Below, in pieces: positions 10,395 through 61,249 of a stretch of DNA of 64,000 bases. Under the pieces are notes generated by a model. That model searched no databases and was not told where the DNA came from. It saw only the letters and a list, made by a program, of their open reading frames with translations. How positions within the stretch are numbered: the stretch's first letter is position 1; every line of letters begins with the position of its first letter. Both the position numbers and the translations under genes were made by a program. Source of the stretch: Burkholderiaceae bacterium (lineage in GTDB: Bacteria > Pseudomonadota > Gammaproteobacteria > Burkholderiales > Burkholderiaceae_C); NCBI GenBank assembly GCA_014879745.1, contig JACSRM010000436.1:11577-75576 (forward strand). Reading direction: 5' to 3'.

Positions 10395-10662
10395 ACCCGA
10401 TGCGCTGACCTTGCGCAGCACCGACGGCGTCCTCGTCGTCACGATGCAGCGGACTGCTTGCGGCCTTTTCGTCGAGCGCGTGCTGCAACGGCCCAAGGCA
10501 GCGCGAATCGTCCAGGCCGCCGTGTTCGACACACCCGGGTCGTTCCATCGGTGGTGCGATGCCGACTCGGCTCGATTCGAGTATCCGCTGCTGTATTCGA
10601 GGTTGGCACGCGGCGCGGACCAACTCTTCGCCGACCATGCAGATGCGCAAGCCGCTGGCTGA
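10357..10662 (+). CDS. hypothetical protein
   Basis: 101 aa with GC-rich third positions. Overlaps the preceding gene by 38 nt and the following LuxR start by 26 nt. No family recognised. Confidence 0.4.
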   Translation: MPTTFAAWAQADRPDALTLRSTDGVLVVTMQRTACGLFVERVLQRPKAARIVQAAVFDTPGSFHRWCDADSARFEYPLLYSRLARGADQLFADHADAQAAG

Positions 10663-11401
10663 GCTCGCACGCGAGCCCGCCTATTCCGACAACGTATTGG
10701 GGACGATTCGCTTGCTCGCGCAGGCCGCCGATGAAGCGCAAGCCGTGGGAGTTCTGGCTGCAGCCTGCGAGCAGATGGGCATCGACGCCGCAGCATTCGT
10801 CAGCTTCGTGCGAGACGACCCGTCGCACGAATCGTTTCGCTTCCTGCTGGCCTGCGATCCGGTTTACTGTCTCGAGTACGAGCGGCGCGCCTGGTACACC
10901 GACGATCCCTGGCTGCAGTATTCGCTGAAACACACCGAACCCGCGCGCGGCGAAGACATCCGGCTCGCTACGGCGAAGCAACGCGATGTCGTGGAACTGG
11001 CGGCGCAGTTCGGCTTCAGGTCGGCGCTGATCGTGCCGGCGCCGTCAAGTGGTGCGTTGACTCGCACCGGCGTGCTCTGCCTCGGCTCGTCGGCGCCGGC
11101 GTTCTTCAATGACGAAGGCTACCTTGCACTCAAGGTGCTGGCGCGAAGCCTGGCCATGGAAATGCACGAGTGGTGGATCGCCAGAATCAAGAATGAACTG
11201 CTTGAAAGCGCGCGACTGACGGGGGAAGACCTGCTCTTGTTGATGCATGAGCGCCTGGGTCACTCGACCAAGTTCATTGCCACCAAGCTGGACATGTCGC
11301 CCAATGCCATCAACTCGCGCTTCCAGCGCATGAATGCGAAGCTCGGCGTCCCCAACCGCAAGACGGCCGCGCAACTCGCGGCCGAGTACGGAATGATCTG
11401 A
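10637..11401 (+). CDS. LuxR-family regulator with autoinducer-binding-like N-terminal domain (LuxR solo; no luxI seen)
   Basis: Start moved to ATG 10637 (MQMRKPLAEL...). ...AWYTDDPWLQYS... and ...GVLCLGS... resemble the acyl-HSL-binding domain pattern. C-terminal HTH ...LTGEDLLLLMHERLGHSTKFIATKLDMSPNAINSRFQRMNAKLGV.... Confidence 0.7.
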   Translation: MQMRKPLAELAREPAYSDNVLGTIRLLAQAADEAQAVGVLAAACEQMGIDAAAFVSFVRDDPSHESFRFLLACDPVYCLEYERRAWYTDDPWLQYSLKHTEPARGEDIRLATAKQRDVVELAAQFGFRSALIVPAPSSGALTRTGVLCLGSSAPAFFNDEGYLALKVLARSLAMEMHEWWIARIKNELLESARLTGEDLLLLMHERLGHSTKFIATKLDMSPNAINSRFQRMNAKLGVPNRKTAAQLAAEYGMI

Positions 11402-14664: not shown

Positions 14665-17070
14665 TCAGGCGGCCGCCATAACGGGTGCGCCAGTACGCCG
14701 GGACCGGGCGAGCAGGAAGTGCGCGAGCGCAGGCAGCAGCAGCAACGCGCCGAGCATGTTCCACAGGAACATGAAGGCGAGCAGCACGCCCATGTCGGCC
14801 TGGAACTTGATCGGAGAGAACACCCAGGTGGCGACACCGACCGACAGCGTCAGTCCGGTCAGAAGCACGACGCGCCCGGTGAAATGAAGCGCGACGCAGT
14901 ACGACTCGCCGATCGATCCGCCCTTGCGCAATTCGACGAGCATCACCGACAGGATGTAGAGCGCGTAGTCGACGCCGATGCCGACGCCGAGCGCGATGAC
15001 GGGCAGCGTCGCGACCTTCACGCCCATGCCGAGCGCGACCATCAACGCCTCGGCGAGGACCGAGGTCAGCATTAGCGGCAGCACCGCGACGACGACCGCG
15101 CGCCACGAGCGGAAGGTGATGAACGCGAGCACGATCACCGCGCCGTAGACGAGCAGCAGCATGCGGTACCAGGCCGCGCGGACGACGATGTTGGTCGCCG
15201 CCTCGACGCCCGAACTGCCGGCGGCGAGCAGGAACTTCACACCCTTGGTGTCGTTCGCCGCTGCAAAGCCTTCCACCTCGTCGACGAGTGCGGAGAGCGT
15301 CGCCGCCTTGTGATCCTGCAGGAACACGATCAGCGTCAGCAGGCTGCAGTTGTCGTTGTACAGCTCGCGCGGCGCGTTGCCGGTGACCATATTGAGCATC
15401 TTCTGGTTCGGAATTAGCTCGAACCACTTCGGGTGGCCTTCGTTCAGCCCGGTCAGAACGAGACGGTTCAGGCGCGCCAGCGACTGCGTCGATTCGACGC
15501 CGGGAAGCTGCAGCAGCTGCCATTCGAGCCCGTCGACGCGCATCAGCGTGTCGTAGTCGGCGCAGGCGCCGTCGGGGGTCTCGATCATCACCGCGAAGAC
15601 GTCGCTGCTCGCGCCGTAGTGCGCGTTGACGAAGCCGACGTCGCGGTTGTAGCGGGAGTCAGCGCGCAGTTCGGGCGCGCCGGGGTCGAGGTCGCCGATC
15701 GCGAGATGGCGGCTGACCGCGTAGCCGCCTACGGCCAGCGCGACGCTGACGAGCACCGTCGGCAGCGCCCAGCGCCTCTGCGTGAAGCGGGCGAGCGCGT
15801 GGAACAGCCCGCTGCGTTCGTCGCCGCCGGCACGCGCGAACGCCTGCTCCGCCTTCAGCGCGCGCGCTGCTGCGCGCGGGCTGACGCCGGTGTAGCTGAG
15901 CAGGATCGGCAGCATGATCAGGTTGGTGAAGACCAGCGCCGCAACGCCGATGCTCGCCGCGATGGCCAGTTCCTGGATCACCCGGATATCGATCGCCAGC
16001 AGCACCGCGAAGCCGACCGCATCGGCCATCAGCGCCGTCAACCCGGCGAGGAACAGGCGCCGGAACGTGAAGCGCGCGGCGACGAGCTTGTCCGTGCCGC
16101 GGCCGATGTCCTGCATGATGCCGTTCATCTTCTGCGCGCCGTGGCTCATGCCGATCGCGAACACCAGGAACGGCACGAGCATCGAGTACGGGTCTAGTGC
16201 GTAGCCGAGCGTTGGCAGCAGGCCGAGCTGCCAGACGACGGCGGTGAGCGATGCGGCGACTACGAGCAGGGTCGAGCGGATGCAGCGTGTGTAGGCGAAG
16301 ACCATCGTCGCGGCGATCGCGATCGCCGCGGCGAAGAAGACGAGCATCTGGCGCAGCCCGGCGATCAGGTCGCCGACGATCTTCGTGAAGCCGGTGATGT
16401 GGACCGTCACACCCTTGCCCTCGTACGCGGCGCGCAGCGCGTCGAGGCGGTCGGAGAGGGCAACGACATCGAGGGCACGGCCCTGCGCGTCCCTCGCGAG
16501 CAGTGGCACGAAAATCACGCTCGAGCAGCCGTCGAGGGCGACGATCTGCCCGATCTCGCCCGAGCGCTGGACGTTGGTCCGAAGGTCCTGCAGGCTCTTC
16601 GCGCTGCCGTCGTAACCGTCGGGGATCACCGGTCCGCCTTCGAGCCCTTCCTCGGTGACGCCGGTCCAGCGCATGTTCGGCGTCCACAGCGACTTCATCG
16701 CCGCGCGATCGACGCCGGGGATCAGGAAGACTTCGTCGTTAAGCTTGCGCAGCGTCTCCAGGTACGCGGCGTCGTAGATCTCGCCGTTCGGATTAGCGAC
16801 CGCGATGCGGATCGCGTTGCCGAGCCCCTTCAGATCGCCTTGGCGCGCCAGCCAGTTGGCGATGTACGGATGATGCTGCGGGATCGTCTTCTCGAAGCTC
16901 GCGTTGAGCCTGAGCTTGGTCGCCTGCAGGCCGAGCAGCACGGTCACGATCGCGCACAGCAGCAGCACAATCGCGCGGTGGTTGAACAGCGCCCGCTCGA
17001 CGATCGAACCCGACTTCCGATCGAAGTCGGCGGTGCCGGCATCGAACGCGCTTGCAGGCTTCGCGATCAT
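14665..17070 (-). CDS. RND-superfamily (MMPL/HpnN-like) inner-membrane transporter
   Basis: 801 aa. Two hydrophobic bundles each preceded by a large soluble loop. The sequence style matches RND proteins that accompany DUF1302/DUF1329 genes. No membrane-fusion or TolC-like gene lies adjacent. Confidence 0.8.
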   Translation of the reverse strand: MIAKPASAFDAGTADFDRKSGSIVERALFNHRAIVLLLCAIVTVLLGLQATKLRLNASFEKTIPQHHPYIANWLARQGDLKGLGNAIRIAVANPNGEIYDAAYLETLRKLNDEVFLIPGVDRAAMKSLWTPNMRWTGVTEEGLEGGPVIPDGYDGSAKSLQDLRTNVQRSGEIGQIVALDGCSSVIFVPLLARDAQGRALDVVALSDRLDALRAAYEGKGVTVHITGFTKIVGDLIAGLRQMLVFFAAAIAIAATMVFAYTRCIRSTLLVVAASLTAVVWQLGLLPTLGYALDPYSMLVPFLVFAIGMSHGAQKMNGIMQDIGRGTDKLVAARFTFRRLFLAGLTALMADAVGFAVLLAIDIRVIQELAIAASIGVAALVFTNLIMLPILLSYTGVSPRAAARALKAEQAFARAGGDERSGLFHALARFTQRRWALPTVLVSVALAVGGYAVSRHLAIGDLDPGAPELRADSRYNRDVGFVNAHYGASSDVFAVMIETPDGACADYDTLMRVDGLEWQLLQLPGVESTQSLARLNRLVLTGLNEGHPKWFELIPNQKMLNMVTGNAPRELYNDNCSLLTLIVFLQDHKAATLSALVDEVEGFAAANDTKGVKFLLAAGSSGVEAATNIVVRAAWYRMLLLVYGAVIVLAFITFRSWRAVVVAVLPLMLTSVLAEALMVALGMGVKVATLPVIALGVGIGVDYALYILSVMLVELRKGGSIGESYCVALHFTGRVVLLTGLTLSVGVATWVFSPIKFQADMGVLLAFMFLWNMLGALLLLPALAHFLLARSRRTGAPVMAAA

Positions 17071-17086
17071 CGTGCCCTCGAGGTGC

Positions 17087-18166
17087 TCAGCGTGCGTGCG
17101 GCAGGTCGACGGCGCGCGTGATGCCGTTCCAGCCGGCCACCAGCAGCGCGTCGGGCCCGAGGCGCAGCAGGTCCGACGGTTGCTGCGCCGAGGTCTGGAC
17201 GACGAGCTCGAGCTTGTCGGCGCTGGGCGTCGCGGCCAGCACCTGACCGGCCTGGTTGGCGAGCCACGTCTCGCCGCCGGCAGCGGGAGCGAGCGCGGTC
17301 AGGCTCACCGGCGCCGGTACGGCAAGCGTCGTCCAGTTCCTGCCGCCATCGCGGCTGCGCAGGGCGGTGCCGCGCAGACCGGCGACGAGCCAGCTGCCGC
17401 CGGCCTCGCGGGCGACGCAGAAGTAGCTGCCCTTGTACGGCGTTTCGACGCGCTCGAAGCTGCCGCCGCCGTCGCCCGAGTACGCGAGCAGCCCCTGCTC
17501 GCCGGCGACGAGCAACTCGACGCCGCTGCGGTACAGCGCATACAGGTGCGCCGACTTCGGGTTGTCGAGCCGCGACGCGATCGACACCCAGGTCTTGCCG
17601 CCGTCCTTCGTCTGCAGCAGCAGGTTGAACGCGCCGGCGACGATGCCATCGCTGTCGTTCGCGAACTGCAGCGCGAGCAGCGGCTTGTCGGTGCCCTCCT
17701 GCACCGCGCGCTCGGCCTCGGCGACAGCCCTGGCGTTGCCGGTGGCCTTGGCGTCGGCGAGCATCAGCTGCGCTGCGGCGCTTCCTTCCAGCTGACGCGT
17801 CCAGTGCTCGCCGCCGTCGTCGCTGCGCAGCACGACGCCGTAGTGGCCGACGGCCCAGCCGACGCGCTCGCTCGCGAACTGCACCGCGGTCAGCGTCGCG
17901 CTGATCGGCACTGATGCCGCCTGACGCCAACTCGAGCCGGCGTCGTCGGAGAGCAGCACGGTGCCGCGCTCGCCGACGGCGACGATGCGCGGCCCGGCCT
18001 GCGCGAGGCCCAGCATCGCCGCGCGCCGCGGATCGCGCAGCCTGAGCGCCGGACGCTCGAGCGGCGCGGCGAGCGCCGCCGCCAGTGCGGCGCGCGGCGC
18101 GCAGGCAGCGGCGGCAGCAGCCGCCAGCCCGCTGCACAGCGTGCGGCGCGACAACGCAACGCTCAC
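17087..18166 (-). CDS. BNR/Asp-box repeat, Ycf48 (photosystem II stability/assembly factor)-like beta-propeller protein, probably Tat-exported
   Basis: GTG start at 18166. N-terminal SRRTLCSGLAAAAAAA twin-arginine-like signal. Repeated S.D.G.(S/T)W motifs (SDDAGSSW, SDDGGEHW, TKDGGKTW, SGDGGGSF, SRDGGRNW). Confidence 0.8.
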   Translation of the reverse strand: MSVALSRRTLCSGLAAAAAAACAPRAALAAALAAPLERPALRLRDPRRAAMLGLAQAGPRIVAVGERGTVLLSDDAGSSWRQAASVPISATLTAVQFASERVGWAVGHYGVVLRSDDGGEHWTRQLEGSAAAQLMLADAKATGNARAVAEAERAVQEGTDKPLLALQFANDSDGIVAGAFNLLLQTKDGGKTWVSIASRLDNPKSAHLYALYRSGVELLVAGEQGLLAYSGDGGGSFERVETPYKGSYFCVAREAGGSWLVAGLRGTALRSRDGGRNWTTLAVPAPVSLTALAPAAGGETWLANQAGQVLAATPSADKLELVVQTSAQQPSDLLRLGPDALLVAGWNGITRAVDLPHAR

Positions 18167-18194
18167 GTCGGCAGCCTCTTCGGTGTTCCGCGCT

Positions 18195-19544
18195 TCAGCG
18201 CACGCCCTCGCCGCCGAGCGACTCGGCGGTGAACGTCGTGTCGGGATAGCGCGGCATGATCTTGTACTGTTCGGCGGCGTCGTTGAGCGCGCTGTCGTAG
18301 TACCAGGCGCCCGAGATCAGGTCGTAGAAACCGAACATCTGCGGCGAGGTCGTCGCCGGAAGGTCGGGCATCACGACCGGGTTCGCGAAGCCCATCTGCC
18401 ATAGCTGCCCGTTCGCATCCCAGTGGTCGGCGAGCACCGCGATCCACGTGTCTTCGTCGAGGTAGTAGCGGCGCTTGGGCGACTGGTGGCGCTTGCCGGC
18501 GGCGACCGTCGCCTCGATCACCCATACACGGTGCAGCTCCCAGCGCATCGCGTCCGGATTCAGGTGATGCGGCATCACCGCGCCTGCCTCGGGCGTCGCA
18601 AGCAGCTTGTTGCCGTTGTACGGGATCAGCATCTCCTTCTTGCCAACGATCTTCCAGTCGAAGCGGTCGATACGGCCGTTGAAAACGTCGGTCTGGTCGA
18701 ACATCGACACGCCCGCGCTGGCCGGCGTCGGCGTGTCGCAGCAGGCGTTGGGCACCTTGCGAACGCGGCGCTGGCCGGTGACGTAGACCCAAACCTGGGT
18801 CTTGTCGCCGTTGAGGTGCTCGCGACCGACGATGCCCTCGCCGGCGCGCAGCGGCGGACCTGACATCATCATCTTGATCATCCAGAACGTGGCGTCGAAC
18901 TTCGCCGGGTCGCCGTCCTTGAAGTAGTACGGCATCTGGAAGTCGCCCGACGCGATGCCAGTGACGACGTGCTTGCCGTCCGACGTGCTCTGGATGGCCT
19001 TGATCGCGACATGCCAGGCTTCGCCGCGCCAGCGCAGCGTATGGTTCCAGATCGCCTCGGCGCCGCTCTTGGGGATCGGGAACGGGATGCCGCCGTAGGC
19101 GTTCACCGGGATCATGTCCTTCAGCTCGGCCTTCACGGCGTTCTTCGCCGTGTTGTCGTAGACCCACTGCGGCGCCGCCGCGGTGCGCCGCGTCGGGTAG
19201 ACGTCGATGCGAAAGCTCTCCGGATACTTTTTCAGCATCGCCTTCGCGCCCTCGGTCAGCTTGTCGGCGTGCTGGTCCATGTTCTTCGCCGTCACCTGGT
19301 AGAGCGGCTTGTCGGCGGCGAACGGGTCGGCGCGCTTGCCGCCGTTCTGGAATCCGGCGATGGGCGTCGTGTAGCCGCCGTCCCACGCCGGAATGCTGCC
19401 GTCCTTGTTGCCCGCCTTCTCGGCGCCGAAGGGCGTCAGTTCGGTCTTCAGCTTCGCCGCCTCTTCCGCCGAGACGGCGGCAAGGGCGGCCTGGCCGCCT
19501 GCGGCAAGCGCGGCGACGGCGACGATCGTCGAGAGTTTGAACAT
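18195..19544 (-). CDS. DUF1329-family periplasmic protein (LolA-like outer-membrane lipoprotein-sorting fold)
   Basis: Internal ATG 19544 of track ORF 18195..21533, with AGGAGA upstream. Signal peptide MFKLSTIVAVAALAAGGQAALA, then ...LTPFGAEKAGNKDGSIPAWDGG..., the hallmark DUF1329 N-terminus. Confidence 0.8.
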   Translation of the reverse strand: MFKLSTIVAVAALAAGGQAALAAVSAEEAAKLKTELTPFGAEKAGNKDGSIPAWDGGYTTPIAGFQNGGKRADPFAADKPLYQVTAKNMDQHADKLTEGAKAMLKKYPESFRIDVYPTRRTAAAPQWVYDNTAKNAVKAELKDMIPVNAYGGIPFPIPKSGAEAIWNHTLRWRGEAWHVAIKAIQSTSDGKHVVTGIASGDFQMPYYFKDGDPAKFDATFWMIKMMMSGPPLRAGEGIVGREHLNGDKTQVWVYVTGQRRVRKVPNACCDTPTPASAGVSMFDQTDVFNGRIDRFDWKIVGKKEMLIPYNGNKLLATPEAGAVMPHHLNPDAMRWELHRVWVIEATVAAGKRHQSPKRRYYLDEDTWIAVLADHWDANGQLWQMGFANPVVMPDLPATTSPQMFGFYDLISGAWYYDSALNDAAEQYKIMPRYPDTTFTAESLGGEGVR

Positions 19545-19561
19545 GCGTGGGTCTCCTGGAT

Positions 19562-21256
19562 TCAGAACGTGCGGCGGATATTGAGCGACACGTAGTCGCG
19601 GTCGCCCCAATACTGCTTGAACATCTGGTGGCCGAACGCGATGAACGGCGCCGAGCTTCCGAAGTAATGCGTGTAGCTCAACCCGAAACGCCAGACGTCG
19701 AGGTACGAGCCGTTGAGGCCGACGCTGATGTCGCCGATACCTTCGCCCTGGAATGCGCCGACCACCGACGAGTTGCCGTCGATGCCGTAGCCGACGCCGA
19801 CCGGCACCGACAGGTCGACGCCGGGGAAGACCTGGCGGTACTTCGGCTCGAAGACGAAACGGATGTTGGTCGCGTTGCGCGTCGCGAGCGGGTTGACGGC
19901 GTTCGGATTCCTGCTCACCGAGAGCAACCGGTTCCACGCCAGCTCGCCGACGAAGTCGGCCTCGTTGGCGAGGAAGGTCGGGCCGAGGCTCGCGATCCAG
20001 TTGATCTGCGCATGCACCGACTTTCCGACCGCGTACAGCGGGTTGTCGCTGTTGTTGCCGCCGCTCAGGTTGACCTGCGCGTCGCTGCTGACCGGCGTGT
20101 TCCAGCGGTAAGACACCTCGGCGCCGAAGTTGACCTTGTCGAACGTCGTATTCGCGCTCGCGCCGACGGCGCGGATCCCCTCGTGGAAGACGAACTGGTA
20201 GTTGCCGACCTGCAGCCCCTTCGAGAACGGCACCGGCGCCGCGAACGGGACCAGGTACGGACCGGACGGGCCGTGGTCGTTCCACTGCACCGCGTACAGG
20301 CCGTAGTCGGTCTCGGCGACGTGGAAGCGCAGCTGCAGCCCGAACTGGCCGCTGTTCTTCGCGTGCATGTTCTCGATATGGTTGAACGACACGTTGCCGA
20401 GCGGCGAGTAGCCGACGATCAGCCGCTCGGCACCGGTGCCGAGCGCGTCCATGAACGAGAAGTAGCTTCCGGACGCCGGCAGGCGGTCGGACTTCCACTC
20501 GAACATGTAGTAGCCGCCGACCATGACCTCGGGCGTGATCTGCAGTTGGCCCGAGACCTGATTCACCGGCATCATGAATTCCTTGAACTGCGCGTTCGGC
20601 ACTGTCGCCGCCTTGATGACGTCGATTGGCGCCTGCGCCGCGGCGATGCCGTTGGCGCCGAACATCAGGCTCTCGCCGTAGAGCAGCGTGTGCTTGCCCA
20701 AGCGGACCGTTCCGCGCATGCCGTCGCCGAGCGTGCCCTTGGCGAACACGAAGGCGTCGAGCAATTCGGCGTCCGCGCCCATCAGCACCTGGGTCGCGTG
20801 CGTGAACTGGTTGGCATCGACCGAGATCGGGTTGGCCGTTGTCGGCGAGTTGTTGGCGTTGCCGTCGCGCCGGTAGATCGTGTCGTACCAGCCGGCGCCC
20901 GAGACGCGGGCGCCGATATTGCGGTACAGGATGTCGAGTTCGCTCAGGATGTCGAGCCGGTTCGAGACCGGGCCGGTCTTGAAGTTGCGGCTCCCGTCGT
21001 CGGTGTTCGGAAAATAGCTTGGCGACGCCGGGTCGTAGTTCGGCAGCGTGCTGCCAACGATCGCCTCCGAAGAGCCCTCGACGCGAAACGTAGCGCTGTA
21101 CTTGAACGTTGTGTCCCAGAGGATCTTCAGGTCGGGGTCGCCTGTCTCGATCTGGAATGCCGCTGCCGGTAGCGCAAGTGCGGCGGCGATGGCGCCGACG
21201 CTCAGCGGCGCGCTGCGATACCGCGCCCTGTTCGGCGCTCGCATGAACATGGGCAT
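19562..21256 (-). CDS. DUF1302-family putative outer-membrane beta-barrel protein
   Basis: Start moved to ATG 21256 (MPMFMRAPN...), with GAGAGGA upstream. Signal peptide, then ...FQIETGDPDLKILWDTTFKYSATFRV... typical of DUF1302. C-terminal ...YVSLNIRRTF ends in an aromatic residue, as in OM barrels. Confidence 0.8.
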   Translation of the reverse strand: MPMFMRAPNRARYRSAPLSVGAIAAALALPAAAFQIETGDPDLKILWDTTFKYSATFRVEGSSEAIVGSTLPNYDPASPSYFPNTDDGSRNFKTGPVSNRLDILSELDILYRNIGARVSGAGWYDTIYRRDGNANNSPTTANPISVDANQFTHATQVLMGADAELLDAFVFAKGTLGDGMRGTVRLGKHTLLYGESLMFGANGIAAAQAPIDVIKAATVPNAQFKEFMMPVNQVSGQLQITPEVMVGGYYMFEWKSDRLPASGSYFSFMDALGTGAERLIVGYSPLGNVSFNHIENMHAKNSGQFGLQLRFHVAETDYGLYAVQWNDHGPSGPYLVPFAAPVPFSKGLQVGNYQFVFHEGIRAVGASANTTFDKVNFGAEVSYRWNTPVSSDAQVNLSGGNNSDNPLYAVGKSVHAQINWIASLGPTFLANEADFVGELAWNRLLSVSRNPNAVNPLATRNATNIRFVFEPKYRQVFPGVDLSVPVGVGYGIDGNSSVVGAFQGEGIGDISVGLNGSYLDVWRFGLSYTHYFGSSAPFIAFGHQMFKQYWGDRDYVSLNIRRTF

Positions 21257-21370
21257 GGTTGTCCTCTCGATGATTGAATGTGAGTCGGCCAAACGCACGA
21301 ACAACAGTGGGTTGCGATGTCCGGCGTCCGTTTGTTGGGGCCGCAATGTAGGCTGATCGATCGCGCAATG

Positions 21371-21413
21371 CACGTCGGTTTTCGCGATGCAACGCATCGC
21401 GTGGTGCGATTTC
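21371..21413 (+). promoter_or_regulatory. four-element operator, site A (cacgtcg-N5-CGCGATG-N5-CATCGCG-N5-CGATTTC)
   Basis: Read directly. Perfect 7-5-7 palindrome at 21383..21401 plus the flanking element CGATTTC at 21407..21413. Lies in the divergent region between DUF1302 (start 21256, minus) and the EthD-like gene (start 21691, plus). Confidence 0.6.
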
Positions 21414-21460
21414 AGGGTCAACCCGAATGCGCTTGGGCGCTCGCAGAAACGCCGCACAGC

Positions 21461-21503
21461 GCAATCGGAATTCGCGATGCAAGGCATCGCACGAATGGAC
21501 TTC
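21461..21503 (+). promoter_or_regulatory. four-element operator, site B (GCAATCG-N5-CGCGATG-N5-CATCGCA-N5-ggacttc)
   Basis: Read directly. Same 12-bp phasing as site A, 90 bp downstream of it. Confidence 0.6.
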
Positions 21504-21690
21504 ACGCCGCTCGCCGGCGTCGATATCCTGCATCGCGCACTTCGATCGCTCTCACTTCCTGCCGCGCCCGCGGACCGACCATGGCAGCAACTTCACCAGA
21601 AAATCATCGCGCGGCGATCGAGTCGCGCGCGGACCGCCGGATCTCGATTCGTGCGCCGATCACCCTGGCCGCGAGCGACGCGGAGGCAGC

Positions 21691-22479
21691 ATGAGCGCGG
21701 GCGGAATGTGCAAACTCGTGGTCCTGCACGATCTATTGTCGAACAACGACCGACCGGCGCTCGAGCGCTGGTTCCGGCGCCAACACTGCCCCGAAGTGCT
21801 GGCTCAGGCGCCATGGATGACGCGCTACGTGATGTACCGCTGCCAGCCGCCGCCGCCGGGCGCCGAGGGGCTTGCCTGCTTCAACTATCGCGTGCACGAG
21901 AACTGGGTGCGCGGCAGCGACGAGCGTCGCGGTGTCGCAGGACTCCTGTCCATGTCGCCGCAGCCGGGCGAGATGGATGTCGTGCTGCTGACCGTTCCAG
22001 CCGAGCCGAGCGACGACTTTCTCGGGGCCGACCTCAGGTTCGACGACACGACGATCCTGCGCTGGATGCAAGTCATTGCCTGGCCCGACGGTGTCGACGA
22101 AGCCGCCGCGGAGAGCTGGTACCTCAACGTCCACGCGCCCGAGGTATGCAGACAACCGGGGCTGATTCGCTTCTTCAGCCACAGGGCCGCGCCCTCGAGC
22201 GGACCGCCGATCCCATCGTCTGCCGGACAGCGGCCGTTCGTGTCCCGGCTACCGCCGCTGTTCGGCAAGCGCTGGCGCCGGCTGACCGAGCTGTGGTACG
22301 CGAACGACGCCGCATGGATCAGGGCCGTGCTCGAACAACCCCCGCACTACACGCCGCCGCCCTGGGGACCGATGCGTGGCTACCCATTTCTGGAACCCGG
22401 CAGCGACTTCGTTTCGGCCTTCCTGCTCGAACACCCGGACCAGAATCTGCTGCGCGACTGCGAGCATCGAATGTTCTGA
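21691..22479 (+). CDS. hypothetical protein with two EthD/dimeric-alpha-beta-barrel-like repeats
   Basis: ATG 21691 with GGAGG 4 nt upstream (internal to track ORF 21427..22479). Two similar segments (...RPALERWFRRQHCPEVLAQ... and ...EAAAESWYLNVHAPEVCRQ...). The family assignment is tentative. Confidence 0.55.
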   Translation: MSAGGMCKLVVLHDLLSNNDRPALERWFRRQHCPEVLAQAPWMTRYVMYRCQPPPPGAEGLACFNYRVHENWVRGSDERRGVAGLLSMSPQPGEMDVVLLTVPAEPSDDFLGADLRFDDTTILRWMQVIAWPDGVDEAAAESWYLNVHAPEVCRQPGLIRFFSHRAAPSSGPPIPSSAGQRPFVSRLPPLFGKRWRRLTELWYANDAAWIRAVLEQPPHYTPPPWGPMRGYPFLEPGSDFVSAFLLEHPDQNLLRDCEHRMF

Positions 22480-22507: not shown

Positions 22508-22550
22508 GGCATTGCAACGCGCGATGCGCGCCATCGCGATAAACGATTTC
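22508..22550 (+). promoter_or_regulatory. four-element operator, site C (ggcattg-N5-CGCGATG-N5-CATCGCG-N5-CGATTTC)
   Basis: Perfect 7-5-7 palindrome at 22520..22538 and CGATTTC at 22544..22550. Ends 47 nt before ATG 22598. Confidence 0.6.
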
Positions 22551-22597
22551 CGCCGGGTTGCACGCGCTCGTTACCCTTCGGCCTCGGAGGCCTTCAA

Positions 22598-27893: not shown

Positions 27894-28025
27894 GGATGTC
27901 CCTCGCGCCGTGCCGGCGCCGGCGCGTGCAGCGCAGCCCACCGTGGAATGCCGGGGCTGCACGGCGCGGCGCGCCGAGGCCCGAGTGCCTGGAGGGCGAT
28001 CTTATTGACTCGCCGATGTGGGGCG

Positions 28026-28068
28026 GTAATCGATTCTGCGGATGCGTGCCATCGCGGGCGCCCATGTT
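28026..28068. promoter_or_regulatory. four-element operator, site D (GTAATCG-N5-GCGGATG-N5-CATCGCG-N5-ccatgtt)
   Basis: Read directly in the divergent MFS (start 27893) / hydantoinase A (start 28310) region. The first three elements fit the motif and the fourth is poor. Confidence 0.5.
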
Positions 28069-28309
28069 AGGGAATTCCATGAGAGTGCCGGACCGCGAAA
28101 GCGCGACTCCGTAGTCCCGACGCGGGCCCTGAGGCGTCGCCCCGGAACCCTCGCGCGATCGGCGCGCGTGTCGCGCATGGGTTTCGCGCATGCATCGGCG
28201 CTGCGGATAGCTCGACTCTCGATAAACCATTTTTCAATCCGATCGCCGCTCGGTACAAACCGCAACGTCGGGCCGCGACCCGATCATTCATGGCAATCGG
28301 AGACGATCG

Positions 28310-30394
28310 ATGGGATACCGGATTTCAGTGGACAGCGGCGGGACATTCACCGACGGCGTCCTGACCGACGAACACGGCACTGCGCTGATGCGCAAGGCGC
28401 ACACCACGCCGCACGACCCGACTCTGGGCACGCTCGACTGCATCGGCAAGCTCGCCGAGGCGCGCGGCGTGTCGCTCGGCGAACTGCTCGCCCAGACGCA
28501 GTCGGTCGTGCTCGGCACGACGATGGCGACCAACGTCGTCGCCACGCTGTCGGGGCCGCGCATGGGCACGATCGCGACACGCGGCTACCGGCTGCGCATG
28601 GCGTTCCCGCAGGTCTCGAAGGTGGAGTGGCGCGAAGGCCCGCAGGACATGTACGACTTCCGCACCGAGCCGCCGCAGCCGCTGACGCCGTACCACCTGA
28701 TGACGGAAGTCGACGAGCGCGTCGACTTCCGCGGCGAAGTGCTGACGCCGGTCGACGAGGCCGACGTGCGCCGCGCTGCGCGCGAGCTCGCGGCGCAGGA
28801 CGTGAGCACGGTGGCCGTGATGCTGCTGCACTCGCACGTCAATCCGGCGCACGAGCGGCGTGTGGCAGAGATCCTGGCGGAGGAGGCGCCGCAGATGCAG
28901 GTGACGCTGTCGTCGTCGGTGCTGCCGGTGGCCGGCGAGACGGAGCGCTGGGGCACGGCGATGTTCTGCGCCTACATCGCGCCGGTGGTGCGCGCCTTCG
29001 TCGCCAGGATCGGCGGCCTGCTCGAGAAGAACGGCTTCAAGGGCCAGCTGCTCTTCATACAGAGCAACGGCGGCATCGCCACGCCCGAGATCGTGGCCGA
29101 AAACCCGGCCGTGCTGCTGCTGTCGGGCCCCGCGGCGGGCCCGTCGCTCGGGCGCGCGCTCGGCGCCGAGCACGGCTACTCGAACGTGCTGTCGGTCGAC
29201 ATGGGCGGCACCAGCTTCGACATCGGCGTCGTGCACGACGGCACGGTCGACACTGTCAAGCAGAAGATCATCGACGGCAAGAAGTTCGCGCTGCCCTGCG
29301 TCGACGTGACGGCCATCGGCGCCGGCGGCGGCAGCATCGCCTACGTCGATCAGGCCGGGCGGCTGCAGGTCGGCCCCAAGAGCGCCGGCGCCAACCCGGG
29401 TCCGGCGTGCTACGGCAAGGGCGGCGAGCAGCCGACCGTGACCGACGCCAATGTCGTGCTCGGATACATCGACCCGGGCTTCTTCCTCGGCGGCACGACG
29501 AAGCTGCGCAAGGACCTTTCCGAGAAGGTGATCCGCGAGCGCATCGCCGAGCCGCTCGGCCTCTCGGTGCCCGAGGCGGCGGCGGCGATCTACGAAGTGA
29601 TCAACGCCAACATGGCCAGCGGCACCGACGTCGCCTTCGCCAAGCGCGGCTACGACCCGCGCGACTTCGCCCTCGTCGCGGCCGGCGGCGCGGCCGCGGT
29701 GCACGCGGTGCGCATCATGCAGGAGCTGCGCATACGCAAGCTGATCGTGCCCAAGGTCGCGCCGACCTACTGCGCCTACGGCATGCAGTTCTGCGATGTG
29801 CGGCACGACTTCCAGCGCAGCTATCACGCCGAGACCGACAAGGCCGACTGCGAGCGCATCGACGCGCTGCTCGCCGGGATGGAGCGCGAGGCGCGCGACA
29901 CGCTGCGCCGCGAAGGCGTGGCCGAGGCTGCGATGGTGATCCGCCGCTCGATCGAGATGCGCTACTACGGCCAGTTCCGCGAGCGCGCCGCGCCGCTCGC
30001 CGACGGGCCGGTGACGGCCGCGTCGCTGCAGGGTGCGCTGCAGGCGTTCCACCGCGTGCACGAGCAGACGGTGGGCTACTCCGATGCGGCTTATCCGACC
30101 GAGATCGTGCGGCTGCACGTCTCGGGCGGCACCGCGACGCAAGCGCCGAGCCTTCAGCCGGTACCGCCGGCGACGGGCCTGGACGCGGCGCGCAAGGGCC
30201 GGCGCCCGGCCTGGTTCAGCGGCCAGGGCTTCGTCGACACGCCTGTCTATGACGGCGACCGGCTCGGCGCCGGCGCCGTCGTCGAGGGCCCGGCGATCGT
30301 CGAGGAGACCTTCACCACCTTCGTGCTGCCGCCGGGCGCACGCACCCAGGTCGACCGCCACGGTCATTTCGTCACCACTGCGCAGGAGGCCTGA
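28310..30394 (+). CDS. hydantoinase A/oxoprolinase family ATP-dependent hydrolase/carboxylase subunit (HyuA-like)
   Basis: 694 aa. N-terminal ISVDSGGTFTDGV and later ...LSVDMGGTSFDIG... ASKHA-type ATPase motifs. Confidence 0.9.
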   Translation: MGYRISVDSGGTFTDGVLTDEHGTALMRKAHTTPHDPTLGTLDCIGKLAEARGVSLGELLAQTQSVVLGTTMATNVVATLSGPRMGTIATRGYRLRMAFPQVSKVEWREGPQDMYDFRTEPPQPLTPYHLMTEVDERVDFRGEVLTPVDEADVRRAARELAAQDVSTVAVMLLHSHVNPAHERRVAEILAEEAPQMQVTLSSSVLPVAGETERWGTAMFCAYIAPVVRAFVARIGGLLEKNGFKGQLLFIQSNGGIATPEIVAENPAVLLLSGPAAGPSLGRALGAEHGYSNVLSVDMGGTSFDIGVVHDGTVDTVKQKIIDGKKFALPCVDVTAIGAGGGSIAYVDQAGRLQVGPKSAGANPGPACYGKGGEQPTVTDANVVLGYIDPGFFLGGTTKLRKDLSEKVIRERIAEPLGLSVPEAAAAIYEVINANMASGTDVAFAKRGYDPRDFALVAAGGAAAVHAVRIMQELRIRKLIVPKVAPTYCAYGMQFCDVRHDFQRSYHAETDKADCERIDALLAGMEREARDTLRREGVAEAAMVIRRSIEMRYYGQFRERAAPLADGPVTAASLQGALQAFHRVHEQTVGYSDAAYPTEIVRLHVSGGTATQAPSLQPVPPATGLDAARKGRRPAWFSGQGFVDTPVYDGDRLGAGAVVEGPAIVEETFTTFVLPPGARTQVDRHGHFVTTAQEA

Positions 30395-35247: not shown

Positions 35248-36165
35248 CTACGCCGGATCGTCATCGCGCTGCATCGCCTCGGCCATCAGCCCGCGCAGCC
35301 AGGCGATGCCCTGGTCGGCGTCGCGCAGGCGGTGCCAGACGGCGGTTTCGATCAGGTGCGGCGTCTCGACCGGCAGTGGGTGCACGCGCAGCGGCAACAG
35401 GCGCTCGTAGTAGCGCGCGAGCCGCGTCTGCATGGTGGCGACGCGCGTCGTCCCGACGATCGTGTGCGCCAGCGCGTTGAAGTCGTTGACGATCAGCTCG
35501 GCGCGGCGCCGCAGCCCGCTGCCGACCATGAACGCTTCGTCGAAAGCGGGCACGCGCTGGTTGCCGAAGCGCACCACGACGTGGCCCGCGGCGAAATATT
35601 CGTCGCGCGTCGGCTGCGCCGCCGACGCCGGGTTGCCGGACCACATGACGCAGCGGTAGTCGTCGTCGAACAGCGGCTGCGACGGATGCGTCGTGTGCAG
35701 GTAGTGCGCCGGCATCAGGAGCATGTCGATGTCCCCGCGGTCGAGCGACTCCCACGGCGCGTCGTTGTACGGCAGCAACTCGAGCACGGCGCCGGGCGCG
35801 AGTTGCTGCAGCCGCGGCAGCAGGCGCGCCATCAGCACCGTCTCGACGTAGTCCGACATCAACAGCCGGAAACGCCGGTCGCTCGTGGCGGGATCGAAGT
35901 CGGGCCGGCGGCGCAGCGCCGTCTCGACGCGCAGCACGATGTCACGCACCGGCTCGGCAAGCGCTTCGCCCAGCGGCGTGGGCACCATGCGCCGCCCCAC
36001 CTGCACCAGCAACTCGTCGTCGAAGTATTCGCGCAGCCGGTTCAGCGCGCCGCTCATCGTCGACTGCGCGACGAACATGCGCTCGGCCGCGCGTGTCGTG
36101 TTGCGCGCGTCGAGCAAGCGGTCGAGCGCGACCAGCAGGTTCATATCGAGGCCGTGGAAATGCAT
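35248..36165 (-). CDS. LysR-family transcriptional regulator, NodD-like (paralogue 1 of 3)
   Basis: MHFHGLDMNLLVALDRLLDARNTTRAAERMFVAQSTMSGALNRLREYFDDELLV.... Closely parallel N-terminus to 60329..61249 and 46114..47028. Confidence 0.9.
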   Translation of the reverse strand: MHFHGLDMNLLVALDRLLDARNTTRAAERMFVAQSTMSGALNRLREYFDDELLVQVGRRMVPTPLGEALAEPVRDIVLRVETALRRRPDFDPATSDRRFRLLMSDYVETVLMARLLPRLQQLAPGAVLELLPYNDAPWESLDRGDIDMLLMPAHYLHTTHPSQPLFDDDYRCVMWSGNPASAAQPTRDEYFAAGHVVVRFGNQRVPAFDEAFMVGSGLRRRAELIVNDFNALAHTIVGTTRVATMQTRLARYYERLLPLRVHPLPVETPHLIETAVWHRLRDADQGIAWLRGLMAEAMQRDDDPA

Positions 36166-42232: not shown

Positions 42233-42248
42233 GGTCTTTCGTCCTTCG

Positions 42249-43154: not shown

Positions 43155-43158
43155 CGCG

Positions 43159-43968: not shown

Positions 43969-44073
43969 GGAAATGCTCTCATGCGGTTTGCGGTCAAACC
44001 ATAGGAGCCACTCGGCGTTTCGACAGGCTCAGCGCGAACGTTCTTGTCGTTTGAGCGCACACCGGTATCACGC

Positions 44074-44421
44074 TCATCGCGCATTCGGCGGATACGGCAT
44101 CACGACGAGGATCGTCGCGACCTCGTTGCCGTGGTTGACGACTTCGCGCGATTCGTTGGACGCAATCGTGCAGCTGTCGAGCGGACCGAGCACGACTTCC
44201 ACGCCTGGCGTCTTGATCGTGATGGCGCCGGCCAGCACGACATAGACCTTCTCGAGTGGCGACGCGTCAGGGCCCGCGCCGCCGCCGGGCAGGAAGTGCG
44301 ACAGCCCCAGCCAGAAGCCCTCGGGCCCGCCGGGCACGAAACCTTGCAGGCGCAGCGATCGTACGTCTCGGTGGTTGGGCGCCTCGTACGGCGGCGCCTC
44401 GCCGAAGCGGGTGACTTTCAT
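44074..44421 (-). CDS. cupin-domain protein
   Basis: ATG 44421 (MKVTRFGEAPPYE...). About 115 aa with ...GLSHFLPGGG...EKVYVVLAGAITI... beta-barrel motifs. Confidence 0.7.
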   Translation of the reverse strand: MKVTRFGEAPPYEAPNHRDVRSLRLQGFVPGGPEGFWLGLSHFLPGGGAGPDASPLEKVYVVLAGAITIKTPGVEVVLGPLDSCTIASNESREVVNHGNEVATILVVMPYPPNAR

Positions 44422-44431
44422 GACGCTTGCC

Positions 44432-46113: not shown

Positions 46114-47028
46114 TCAAGCCGGCGCCGCAAGCGCCCGCGCGTGCGCCATGATGCGTTCGCGCAGCCAGAGGCTGCCGGGGTCGTGGTCGCGGTACTTGTG
46201 CCAGGCCAGCATCTCGGCGAAGGGAGGAAGCTCGAAATCCAGCCGGACCCGGCGCAGCGATTCATCCTGGCAGGCGAGCATCGCCTGTCGCGTGTGAAGC
46301 GTCGCGATTCTGCGCGTGCTCAGTACCAGAAGCGGCAGCATCACGAAGCCCGGGAACGCAACCTCGACGCGCCGCGCCGCGGCATGCCGGCGCGAGAACC
46401 AAAGGTCGAACATCGGCTGGCCGCTGTTGGTAAGGCAAGCTACATGGCCAAGCGCCAGGTACTGCTCTAGCGACAACGTGTCGCCGACATCCGGGTTGTC
46501 GCGCGCAACGACGCCGCTGTAGTCGTCGCCGAACAGCAGCGCCGACGAGAAGCCCGGCGTGTCCGCCCATTCTGGCGCGATCAGGAAGTCGACCTCGCCA
46601 GTCTCCAAATCCTGGTACGAGAGCCGGTGCGCCTGACGTAACTCGATCGTGATGCCACCGGCACATAGCGCCAAGTCGCGCAGCACCTCATGCAGCAGTA
46701 CGGTGACGGCATAGTCCGAGGCGACGATATTGAAATGCCGGCGCGTCGTTGCGGGGTCGAACTCGGGCCGGGTGCCCAGCGTCGCGTCGATCATCAGTAT
46801 CAGGTCATTGACCTTGTCGACCAGACTTTCGCCGAGCGGCGTCAACTCCATGCGCCGGCCCAGCGGGACGATCAGCGGATCCTCGAAATACTCGCGCAGC
46901 CGTGCCAGGATGCCGCTCATCGCCGACTGGCTCACGCACAGCAATTCACCGGCCCGGGTGACGTTCTTCTCCGTCAGCAAAGCGCGCAGCGCGTTGATCA
47001 GGTTGAGGTCCAGGCGCTGATAGCGCAT
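46114..47028 (-). CDS. LysR-family transcriptional regulator, NodD-like (paralogue 2 of 3)
   Basis: MRYQRLDLNLINALRALLTEKNVTRAGELLCVSQSAMSGILARLREYFEDPLIV.... Confidence 0.9.
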   Translation of the reverse strand: MRYQRLDLNLINALRALLTEKNVTRAGELLCVSQSAMSGILARLREYFEDPLIVPLGRRMELTPLGESLVDKVNDLILMIDATLGTRPEFDPATTRRHFNIVASDYAVTVLLHEVLRDLALCAGGITIELRQAHRLSYQDLETGEVDFLIAPEWADTPGFSSALLFGDDYSGVVARDNPDVGDTLSLEQYLALGHVACLTNSGQPMFDLWFSRRHAAARRVEVAFPGFVMLPLLVLSTRRIATLHTRQAMLACQDESLRRVRLDFELPPFAEMLAWHKYRDHDPGSLWLRERIMAHARALAAPA

Positions 47029-50816: not shown

Positions 50817-50899
50817 GGGCTTGGCTCGAAGACGCCGCGATGCAGCAGCATGTAGGTGGTACCGGGCCACGCCATCGTAGGCAGAGCAGCGCGACGAGG

Positions 50900-50942
50900 C
50901 GAATCGAAAATTGCGATCCCGGGCATCGCGATAAGCGATTTC
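50900..50942 (+). promoter_or_regulatory. four-element operator, site E (CGAATCG-N5-TGCGATC-N5-CATCGCG-N5-CGATTTC), the most symmetrical copy
   Basis: Read directly. 83 nt upstream of the EthD gene start (50816, minus strand) and 321 nt upstream of the ThDP enzyme start (51264, plus strand). Confidence 0.6.
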
Positions 50943-60080: not shown

Positions 60081-60169
60081 GGCGAGCCTCGCCGTTCCAA
60101 TGCGTTCATCACGCAGATAGCGTAGGACGAACGCGCGCGCCGCCCAAGCGGAACTCTTGGATGGCTCGT

Positions 60170-60184
60170 ATCGATCGCGACGAT
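60170..60184. promoter_or_regulatory. ATC-N9-GAT (nod-box-core/LTTR-like) palindrome ATCGATCGCGACGAT in the cofE / LysR divergent region
   Basis: Read directly. About 90 nt upstream of the cofE start and about 145 nt upstream of the LysR start. Confidence 0.3.
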
Positions 60185-60328
60185 GCACGCGCGGGATGAG
60201 GACGCGACCTTGACTTCGATCAAACGAACCATCCACGGCGCGCGAGACCATCCATCCGGAACATGCCGCTGCCAGGATCGCACCGTTCGACGCATGCGGC
60301 GGCGACGGGCGTGTCAGCAGGACGATCG

Positions 60329-61249
60329 ATGCATTTCAAGGGACTCGACCTCAACCTCCTGGTTGCGCTGGACCTTCTGCTCGCCGAGCGCAGCATCACC
60401 CGCGCGAGCGAACGTTTGCACCTGAGTCAGTCGGCCATGAGCAGCGCGCTCGGCCGCCTTCGCTCGTACTTCGACGACGAACTGCTGGTACAGACCGGGC
60501 GCAACATGGTGCCGACTGCGCTGGCCGAGGCCCTTGCTGCACCGGTGCGCGAGGTCTTGTTGAAGATCGACAGTACGGTGCGCACGCGGCCGCAGTTCGA
60601 AGCGGCAACGTCGACGCGCCACTTCAAGTTGCTGATGTCCGACTACGTGTCGACCGTGCTGCTGGCCAATCTGCTGCCGCGCCTCGAACGAGAGGCGCCG
60701 GGCGTCAGCCTCGATCTGCTGCCGTACGCCGATTCGCACTGGGAAATGCTCGAGCGCGGCAGCGCCGACTTCCTCTTCATACCGTCGCAATACCTGCGCG
60801 GCGAGCATCCCTGGGAAGTGCTGTTCGAAGACGAGTTCGTCGGTGTAGTCTGGTCCGGCAACGCTTTGGTCGGGGCGCAACTCACGCTCGAGCAGTACAT
60901 GGCACTCGGCCACGTCGCTGTTCGTTTCGGCAACCTGCGCGCACCGACAACGGTCGACTCGTTCTTTGATAATCTCGGCCACCATCGCCGGATTGACGTG
61001 GTCGCTGCCGACTTCAACTCGACGACGCGTATGGTAATCGGGACTCACCGCATCGCCACCGTGCAAAGGCGCCTGGCGTGCTACTACGCCACCTACCTTC
61101 CCTTGCGCGTGCTGGAGCTGCCCATGAACATGCCGCGCTTGTGCGAGATCATCGCCTGGCACGGCTTCCGCACGAACGATCCAGGGAGCGTCTGGTTGCG
61201 CCGGATGATGGCCGACGCGATGCGCGACGCTGCACCGGCATCGCCCTGA
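60329..61249 (+). CDS. LysR-family transcriptional regulator, NodD-like (paralogue 3 of 3), divergent from the F420 operon
   Basis: ATG 60329. MHFKGLDLNLLVALDLLLAERSITRASERLHLSQSAMSSALGRLRSYFDDELLV.... Confidence 0.9.
   Translation: MHFKGLDLNLLVALDLLLAERSITRASERLHLSQSAMSSALGRLRSYFDDELLVQTGRNMVPTALAEALAAPVREVLLKIDSTVRTRPQFEAATSTRHFKLLMSDYVSTVLLANLLPRLEREAPGVSLDLLPYADSHWEMLERGSADFLFIPSQYLRGEHPWEVLFEDEFVGVVWSGNALVGAQLTLEQYMALGHVAVRFGNLRAPTTVDSFFDNLGHHRRIDVVAADFNSTTRMVIGTHRIATVQRRLACYYATYLPLRVLELPMNMPRLCEIIAWHGFRTNDPGSVWLRRMMADAMRDAAPASP

Follow-up and report, generated by a model that had tools for sequence, protein, structure and literature searches.

The sensing of flavonoids by rhizobial NodD proteins is a textbook case of plant-microbe signalling, and the nod box is a 47-bp element that contains the motif ATC-N9-GAT, which has also been proposed as a general LysR box. 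We used this published definition of the operator motif, which contains T-N11-A. FdeR of Herbaspirillum seropedicae, which belongs to the NodD-like LysR regulators and activates the fde operon for flavonoid degradation, extended the switch to catabolism in a non-nodulating bacterium. Like NodD it senses flavonoids; it has been described as a multimer that occupies its operator whether or not naringenin is present and that moves between activation sub-sites, its footprint is 60 bp and its LysR boxes overlap the -35 region. As described, the fde pathway is oxidative, involving 8-hydroxylation and dioxygenation of the A-ring. MexT of Pseudomonas aeruginosa is likewise NodD-like, with an experimentally confirmed box (ATCA-N5-GTCGAT-N4-ACYAT) and a multi-gene regulon of efflux and redox-stress genes, and a redox or stress cue has been proposed for it. 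The operator architecture and the NodD-like control of flavonoid catabolism are thus already known from nod box/NodD and from FdeR, with MexT providing a non-rhizobial nod-box-like site. Here we describe a 43-bp box of this kind that recurs in 64,000 nucleotides of DNA from a Burkholderiaceae bacterium (assembly GCA_014879745.1, contig JACSRM010000436.1, positions 11,577 to 75,576; G+C content 67%), hereafter called the window. We consider it likely that the boxes are operators of tetrameric NodD/FdeR-type activators, probably flavonoid-sensing, which control a multi-operon catabolic regulon.

A 43-bp box made of two adjacent palindromes

The first-pass annotation of the window, made from the sequence alone, had described a recurring element with the consensus GAAATCG-N5-CGCGATG-N5-CATCGCG-N5-CGATTTC, which contains ATCG-N5-CGCGAT and ATCGCG-N5-CGAT; the six sequences that it quoted are all present exactly where it placed them, and its sites A and B do lie 90 bp apart, centre to centre. 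The window contains five full 43-bp boxes (A to E; Table 1), which are real and far beyond chance. Each carries two ATC-N9-GAT palindromes separated by a 7 bp gap, with centres 22 bp apart and with at most one mismatch in 12 core bases. The core ATC-N9-GAT-N7-ATC-N9-GAT was matched seven times in the window at up to one mismatch, against 0.09 matches expected, and the inner CGCGATG-N5-CATCGCG, the most conserved part of the box within the window, 11 times at up to two mismatches, against 4.1 expected and with none of 100 shuffles reaching 11. In a leave-one-out analysis with a position weight matrix (PWM), each held-out box ranked first among approximately 63,800 window positions; boxes A, B, C and E scored 38-43 bits against random maxima of 13-19, while box D was marginal (14.4 versus 11.5) but has orthologous boxes in two other genomes. 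The four-element geometry proposed for A, B, 22508, 28026 and 50900 is real. The degenerate copy proposed at 47069-47111 (site F) was rejected, since it has 6 of 12 core mismatches, is outside the top PWM hits and lacks a correctly spaced -10 hexamer. Another core match with one mismatch, at 61966-62002, was treated as chance; it fell outside the top PWM hits and the box-plus-spacing filter. Gene boundaries were set from G+C content at third codon positions (GC3), Shine-Dalgarno sequences and domain positions, and once start codons had been fixed in this way all five full boxes were intergenic in a window of which no more than 17% is non-coding.

The layout of the boxes is that of the nod box. 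The nodD1-nodA region of Sinorhizobium meliloti carries ATCCATATCGCAGAT-GATCGTT-ATCCAAACAATCAAT-TTTACC in the same arrangement, and the type of operator has therefore already been described, although the first-pass annotation had not recognised it; the FdeR operator also fits in geometry and in its spacing to the -10 hexamer. In the S. meliloti nodA nod box (ATC-N9-GAT-N7-ATC-N9-AAT) the spacing is identical to that of the boxes in the window and in related contigs, and the likeness extends to GATG after the first palindrome and to an A/T-rich promoter-proximal end, (C)AATTT or CGATTT. The window consensus differs in being GC-rich with a strongly palindromic CGCGATG-N5-CATCGCG centre, and it does not keep the 47-bp consensus; its targets are catabolic and envelope genes, its host is a member of the Burkholderiaceae and not a rhizobium, and no nod genes were found in the window. 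Since the likeness to the S. meliloti box is confined to the ATC/GAT cores and a few neighbouring bases, and nod genes are missing, we regard the boxes as having a nod-box-type architecture and not as nod boxes proper.

The FdeR promoter PfdeA, whose native sequence was taken from a supplementary plasmid GenBank file, has a best site of the same two-palindrome geometry at positions 9-51 of the insert, and its CCATTT end recurs in the weak box D2 and in boxes of two related contigs (L011 and L012). FdeR is also a betaproteobacterial NodD-like regulator to which DNA-binding domains encoded in the window are 61-71% identical. The fde system differs in its described single fdeR-fdeA divergent pair, as against at least six promoters and three paralogous regulators here, and in its genes, those linked to boxes in the window being a bacterial chalcone isomerase (CHI) homologue together with EthD-like, PhlG-like, CrtI-like and other genes. 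MexT shares with the present case a NodD-like regulator outside the rhizobia and a site containing ATC-N9-GAT, but its box has one palindrome and a short extra element in place of two full palindromes 7 bp apart.

Promoter spacing and conservation in related contigs

All five full boxes have a TAnnnT hexamer, for which the background rate is 0.0058 per position, at a distance of 20-21 nt outside one of their ends. Because the rule had emerged from inspection of these data, it was then tried on sequences that had not been used before. It held in eight boxes of related contigs (two in L003, of which one is bidirectional, one each in L009 and L010, and two each in L011 and L012) and in PfdeA, where the best site then has TAAGCT at exactly 20 nt. 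The full copies had been called intergenic and promoter-proximal in the first-pass annotation, and the corrected start codons together with the hexamer spacing bear this out. If TAnnnT is the -10 element and transcription starts about 7 nt after it, the box would span approximately -75 to -33, and its palindrome centres would fall near -65 and -43, with the proximal one overlapping the -35 region. The classical LysR promoter has a recognition site near -65 and an activation site near -35. The boxes thus resemble a generic LysR promoter in these inferred centres and in the T-N11-A contained in ATC-N9-GAT. They differ from it in that both palindromes are strong, whereas most LysR promoters have a weak activation site that is difficult to discern, and in that box E and the L003 box each seem to be shared by two divergent promoters.

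Weaker sites accompany the full boxes (Table 1). Site B2 directly follows box B and overlaps both the -10 hexamer and the transcription start predicted for CHI; repression, autoregulation or chance could account for it. At box D2 the hexamer found at the expected spacing (TACAAA, 28254-28259) is only -10-like. This box has a promoter segment, CGCTCG(G/T)TAC, in common with boxes C and E, and a CCATTTT end in common with PfdeA and the boxes of L011 and L012. The boxes of the window appear to fall loosely into two types, ending in CGATTTC or CCATTTT, and the occurrence of CCATTTT-type boxes both in PfdeA and beside LysR3-like genes hints at a possible division of labour among the LysR paralogues described below.

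The boxes are conserved together with their genes. Relatives of the CHI homologue at 71% identity sit in contigs that have the same gene order as the window (L003 to L006), namely the DUF1302 cluster, a divergent CHI gene, SnoaL, a CrtI-like gene, a short-chain dehydrogenase/reductase (SDR), a thiamine diphosphate (ThDP) enzyme and a nitroreductase. In these contigs a box lies between the DUF1302 cluster, whose second envelope gene is called DUF1329 there, and CHI, and box C has a positional equivalent after CHI; L003 also has a bidirectional box that resembles box E. Contig L009 has the order EthD, CHI, LysR with a box upstream of EthD, and CHI would be under direct box control in the window, L003 and L009. 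Where these relatives have one bidirectional box the window has two, A and B. In L011 and L012 all three LysR paralogues are clustered with a major facilitator superfamily (MFS) transporter, SDR and F420 genes, L012 carries a phloroglucinol-type operon as well, and boxes lie upstream of MFS and between cofE and the LysR3-like gene, the latter syntenic with box G. The MFS boxes are orthologues of box D in which the 7-mers are conserved and the spacers have diverged. The first-pass annotation had suggested footprinting of orthologous promoters, and in the alignment of the three MFS promoters the invariant columns are indeed the four elements (ATG, CG.GATG, CATCCGCA and CGATT), with diverged spacers and flanks. 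Across genomes the ATC/GAT triplets are conserved and the CGCG parts of the inner 7-mers vary, while the outer elements stay in register; because of this, the two nested inverted repeats originally read into the box are a less useful parse than two adjacent palindromes. No box was found at CHI homologues of 64% identity in non-syntenic contigs without a LysR gene (L007 and L008), and no convincing one at four loci of PhlG-like homologues (L013 to L016), whose gene contexts were varied.

A scan of metagenomes with ATCG-N5-CGCGATG-N5-CATCGCG served solely as a negative control and is silent on the spread of the regulon. Among the 80 matches listed, the fourth element was present in none and the spacing rule held in three; the matches were mostly coding and chance-like, and none had related neighbour genes. 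One segment, CGCATCG-aacat-CGCGATG-tgcat-CATCGCG-tag, was nearly identical in unrelated metagenome contigs (L061, L032, L064, L055, L030, L038 and L083) and is presumably a conserved coding piece of a widespread protein, and three of the four elements can therefore arise in coding DNA.

These observations bear on the idea that the boxes are a dispersed palindromic, REP-like repeat, or a structured RNA or DNA hairpin, and not a protein operator at all. The inner CGCGATG-N5-CATCGCG can form a 7-bp hairpin, and for boxes A and B folding is slightly more favourable than for shuffled sequences (z about -2), but for boxes C, D and E it is not (z -0.3 to +0.8), and an Rfam search of the window finds nothing. 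The cross-genome conservation lies in the ATC/GAT triplets and not in the stem-forming CGCG. Copies are few and all upstream of genes; the first-pass annotation had named a similar density inside genes as the mark of a REP-like element, and in the window and the related contigs none is located inside a gene or at a gene 3' end. Their distance from the -10-like hexamer is fixed, so that they lie upstream of the inferred transcription starts. The repeat or hairpin explanation is already largely refuted, and we regard it as exceedingly improbable.

Three sites with the 43-bp geometry were also seen in a Massilia putida plasmid (NZ_CP019037.1, L002; locus positions 19875-19917, 28999-29041 and 37293-37335), with a 20-nt spacing to TATGAT or TATCAT. 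The layout is the same and the half-sites are different, being of the ACC/GGT type (AAAACCG-N5-..CGGTT-N5-TATCAAG-N5-CGGT). Of the three sites, one is 15 bp away from a gene for a NodD-like LysR protein and another is upstream of a DUF1302/DUF1329 cluster; together they appear to represent a variant form of this operator family whose specificity has changed.

NodD-like LysR paralogues as candidate regulators

All three LysR paralogues of the window contain Pfam domains PF00126 (HTH_1) and PF03466 (substrate-binding). Over 99-100% of their length they share approximately 40% identity with annotated rhizobial NodD1/NodD2, and their full-length identity to FdeR is 38-43%. In the DNA-binding domain, identity to NodD1 or FdeR reaches 48-71%, compared with 34-43% for the full-length proteins. 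The domain of LysR1 is 65% identical to that of FdeR and 55% to that of NodD1, the domain of LysR2 48-61% to NodD1/FdeR and that of LysR3 71% to FdeR, giving LysR1 and LysR3 a range of 55-71% (FdeR/NodD1). Higher conservation of the DNA-binding domain than of the whole protein is the pattern expected for shared DNA recognition and diverged effector domains. The presence of several paralogous regulators is a further likeness to rhizobia, in which NodD paralogues also occur together in a genome. The paralogues are about equally distant from FdeR and NodD1 (34-43%), and NCBIfam places them only in a broad LeuO/BsrA-like branch, well below equivalog cut-offs. With a full-length identity to FdeR of only 38-43% they therefore belong to separate clades; judged from sequence, the regulators of the window are orthologues of neither FdeR nor NodD, and the consensus and the targets differ as well. 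The closest solved structures are DntR-type LysR regulators. Regulators of the DntR type are tetramers. A tetrameric, dimer-of-dimers regulator, as envisaged in the first-pass annotation, is the best reading of the two-palindrome architecture, which implies it.

In L009, L010, L011 and L012 the boxes occur together with NodD-like LysR genes. The LysR2 orthologue of L009 (63% identity) is the last gene of the box-preceded EthD-CHI-LysR unit, and the LysR3 orthologues of L011 and L012, whose identity to FdeR is 48%, have their starts 7 bp from the distal end of a box, a distance close to the 8 bp that separate the start of nodD1 from its nod box. A genome-wide search for the clade found LysR2 orthologues in three Burkholderiales metagenome-assembled genomes (MAGs), making up only three loci or species-level genomes. 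The first-pass annotation had named the NodD-like paralogues as candidates for the cognate regulator, and family, DNA-binding domains and gene neighbourhood all point to them as the best candidates to bind the boxes.

A regulator of another family (a TetR-, IclR- or LuxR-type dimer of dimers) might instead bind the inner palindrome, the outer ATCG/CGAT elements being incidental. The inner palindrome is the most conserved part in the window and a LuxR-type gene is situated about 10 kb away (10559-11401). In other genomes, however, the inner CGCG varies and the outer elements keep their register; neither in the window nor in the related contigs is a TetR or IclR gene found next to a box, whereas NodD-like LysR genes occur with boxes in L009 to L012; and T-N11-A within ATC-N9-GAT, with centres near -65 and -43, is a LysR signature. 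We therefore consider binding by another family very unlikely.

If NodD/FdeR-type LysR proteins do act at the boxes, each palindrome would be bound by one dimer and a tetramer would cover both; the 22 bp between the centres, about two helical turns, places the palindromes on the same face of the DNA. The distal palindrome near -65 would be the recognition site and the proximal one near -43 the activation site overlapping the -35 region. By analogy with NodD and FdeR, the tetramer would remain bound with or without ligand, and an effector, for which a flavonoid or a breakdown product is the likeliest candidate, would change the shape of the complex so that a promoter lacking its own -35 element becomes accessible to RNA polymerase; the boxes would accordingly mediate activation and not repression. 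LysR1, LysR2 and/or LysR3, in whatever pairing with individual boxes, would co-ordinate at least six promoters, driving the DUF1302/RND operon, the CHI homologue, the CrtI-like/SnoaL/SDR genes, the MFS/SDR genes, the EthD-like/PhlG-like/nitroreductase genes and probably the ThDP gene, with weaker boxes facing the hydantoinase operon and the F420 gene cofE.

Several observations weigh against this interpretation. A generic sigma-70 scan of the intergenic regions found no -35/-10 pair, which is expected for activator-dependent promoters, and the assignment of the -10 element therefore depends on the spacing rule alone. PfdeA differs in its half-sites, with three core mismatches and a window PWM score of -2.4, and the feature it shares with the boxes is therefore the architecture and not the exact sequence. 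In boxes A and B the distal outer half-site is the better one, in C and D the proximal one, and orienting the boxes by the stronger outer half-site gave no consistent rule for the promoter-facing end. Boxes D2 and G are weak, site B2 overlaps the predicted CHI promoter, and the rightward promoter of box E would give a leader of about 290 nt. In the window, no box was found adjoining LysR1 or LysR2, nor upstream of the phloroglucinol-type operon at 41294-45274. Finally, a flavonoid effector is suggested only by family resemblance and one well-supported enzyme, the CHI homologue.

Table 1. Boxes, predicted promoter elements, regulators and catabolic genes of the window (positions count from its first nucleotide)
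Feature	Position	Strand	Remarks
Box A	21371..21413	-	faces DUF1302 envelope operon; 1 core mismatch; leave-one-out 38.4 bits, rank 1
Predicted -10 of box-A promoter, TACATT	21345..21350	-	20 nt beyond box left end
Box-A promoter			inferred start ~21338; DUF1302 ATG 21256, Shine-Dalgarno GAGAGGA
Box B	21461..21503	+	faces chalcone-isomerase-like gene; 1 core mismatch; 39.9 bits, rank 1
Predicted -10 of box-B promoter, TATCCT	21524..21529	+	20 nt beyond box right end
Box-B promoter			inferred start ~21536; CHI ATG 21691
Site B2	21507..21549		1 core mismatch, low PWM score; missed in first-pass annotation
Box C	22508..22550	+	between CHI and CrtI-like gene (ATG 22599); predicted -10 TACCCT 22572-22577; inferred start ~22584
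Box D	28026..28068	-	faces MFS transporter/SDR unit (MFS ATG 27893); predicted -10 TAAGAT 27999-28004; inferred start ~27992
Box D2 (weak)	28191..28233	+	2 core mismatches; faces hydantoinase operon (ATG 28310); missed in first-pass annotation
Box E	50900..50942		perfect core; 43.1 bits; -10-like hexamers on both sides
Box E left hexamer, TACGAT	50874-50879		faces EthD-like/PhlG-like/nitroreductase unit (ATG 50816); inferred start ~50867
Box E right hexamer, TACGCT	50963-50968		faces ThDP enzyme gene (ATG 51265); inferred start ~50975
Box G (weak)	60145..60187	-	3 core mismatches; faces cofE (ATG 60080), divergent from LysR3; missed in first-pass annotation
Box G predicted -10, TACGCT	60119-60124		
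LysR1	35248..36165	-	NodD/FdeR-like; candidate box binder
LysR2	46114..47028	-	NodD/FdeR-like
LysR3	60329..61249	+	NodD/FdeR-like; paralogue closest to FdeR
LuxR-type regulator	10559-11401	+	autoinducer-binding domain; adjoins fatty-acid desaturase gene; no box linked
Envelope operon	14665..21256	-	DUF1302, DUF1329-position gene, BNR-YCF48, MMPL-RND; putative target of box A
CHI homologue	21691..22479	+	Pfam Chalcone_N above cut-off; putative target of box B
Box C unit	CrtI-like ATG 22599	+	CrtI-like oxidoreductase, SnoaL-like protein, SDR
Box D unit	MFS ATG 27893	-	MFS transporter, SDR
Box D2 unit	hydantoinase A ATG 28310	+	hydantoinase A/B, AMP-ligase, enoyl-CoA hydratase
Phloroglucinol-pathway-like operon	41294-45274	-	BKACE-family enzyme, 3-hydroxyacyl-CoA-dehydrogenase-like protein, SDR, cupin, cyclase-family protein
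FbiB-C-terminal-like nitroreductase	48438-49220	-	putative leftward target of box E
PhlG/phloretin-hydrolase-like gene	49312-49932	-	putative leftward target of box E
EthD-like gene	49962-50816	-	putative leftward target of box E
ThDP enzyme	ATG 51265	+	putative rightward target of box E
F420 biosynthesis genes	53740-60080	-	FbiC-like radical-SAM fusion, FrhB-like, CofE
cofE (F420 ligase)	ATG 60080	-	faced by weak box G

Box-linked genes and the surrounding catabolic island

The divergent region with boxes A and B had been described as lying between DUF1302 and EthD-like genes. The DUF1302 side stands, but the right-hand gene encodes a CHI homologue and is not merely EthD-like. The protein matches the Eubacterium ramulus CHI structures (PDB 3ZPH/4C9S/4D06; E = 1.7e-15) in two stretches that cover most of its length, and its start agrees with that of a 262-aa database protein (P0001) of a Burkholderiaceae MAG, to which it is 100% identical. 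No paralogy was detectable between the CHI-like and the EthD-like proteins. The EthD-like and PhlG-like proteins have no sequence or profile match in the PDB. The PhlG-like protein (206 aa) scores 20.5 bits against Pfam DAPG_hydrolase, under the cut-off of 22.7. Its predicted fold, of the Bet v 1/START (SRPBCC) type, matches Mycobacterium abscessus phloretin hydrolase (E = 4e-6, TM about 0.5) and PhlG, though generic SRPBCC-fold proteins score equally; the family is large (more than 660 clusters), highly conserved and mostly unannotated. The exact ThDP protein has no record in the contig index. In L003 to L006 the genes for the ThDP enzyme and the nitroreductase are joined to the CHI operon, which supports the link that the first-pass annotation had drawn between two parts of the window 30 kb apart.

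The operon at 41294-45274 contains four adjacent enzyme families, those of phloroglucinol reductase, a cyclase-family cyclohydrolase, a 3-hydroxyacyl-CoA-dehydrogenase-like dehydrogenase and a BKACE-family lyase, and these match the phloroglucinol degradation pathway of Clostridium scatologenes (PGR, DPGC, TfD and TAL), the match being at the family level only; its SDR has 5G4K/5G4L as best PDB match (E = 1e-53), and an ABC transporter and LysR1 come after it. Breakdown of flavonoids through CHI, phloretin hydrolase and phloroglucinol has been described in anaerobic gut and environmental bacteria. None of the papers in the literature searched connected Burkholderiales with a bacterial CHI or with phloretin hydrolase, which is weak evidence given the limits of the library. 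We regard the window as a probable flavonoid-breakdown gene island.

It is also conceivable that the boxes are operators of NodD-like LysR proteins that answer to a signal other than a flavonoid (another aromatic or hydrophobic substrate, a pathway intermediate, for instance phloroglucinol, or a cue from redox state or stress) and that the island degrades something else. The CHI homologue is the only box-linked enzyme that points specifically to flavonoids; the PhlG-like assignment is tentative, and the remaining genes (CrtI-like, SnoaL, SDRs, hydantoinase, AMP-ligase, ThDP enzyme and DUF1302/RND) are generic. Full-length identity to NodD and FdeR is only 34-43%, with diverged effector domains, and MexT is a NodD-like protein that has a nod-box-like site and no link to flavonoids. 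Yet the match of the CHI homologue to the E. ramulus enzyme is near full length and its gene would be directly under box control here, in L003 and in L009, an operon resembling the phloroglucinol pathway, the expected sink for the flavonoid A-ring, is present in the same island, and flavonoids are the signal for both NodD and FdeR, the two characterised relatives whose boxes are built in this way. A non-flavonoid signal thus appears unlikely, and we favour NodD/FdeR-type control by a flavonoid or its breakdown product.

The locus reveals no new regulatory principle. It provides a second well-delimited example of a NodD-like catabolic switch, from a different clade of the subfamily and with an unusually clean operator consensus. 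The box-plus-spacing rule (43-bp box, 20-21 nt, TAnnnT) can be used to predict NodD-like regulons elsewhere, the boxes and regulators are candidate parts for flavonoid-responsive biosensors, and a regulatory link that can be tested is drawn between a bacterial CHI homologue, F420 biosynthesis and an envelope cluster (DUF1302/DUF1329) that has been little characterised. A more far-reaching scenario, which we offer tentatively and think has a limited chance of being correct, is that in an uncultured soil or water member of the Burkholderiaceae the NodD/FdeR switch has grown into a multi-promoter, three-paralogue regulon serving CHI/phloretin-hydrolase/phloroglucinol breakdown, DUF1302/DUF1329/RND uptake and F420 biosynthesis, in which F420 would reduce flavonoids and the box sub-types would be read by different paralogues with different flavonoids or intermediates.

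Besides the F420 biosynthesis genes, the island holds the FbiB-C-terminal-like nitroreductase gene and a luciferase-like monooxygenase gene (63268-63918), and this combination in a proteobacterial catabolic island suggests F420-dependent pathway steps. In L003 (6055-6095) the predicted -10 hexamer of CHI, TACGCT, ends 8 nt before the ATG and the transcript may be leaderless; here the gene caller had begun 27 codons too early, across the box. Homologues of the PhlG-like protein occur in varied aromatic-catabolic contexts, and in L014 the gene sits beside FAD monooxygenase and glyoxalase-family genes, two families that are among the fde-like genes of the ifc paper.

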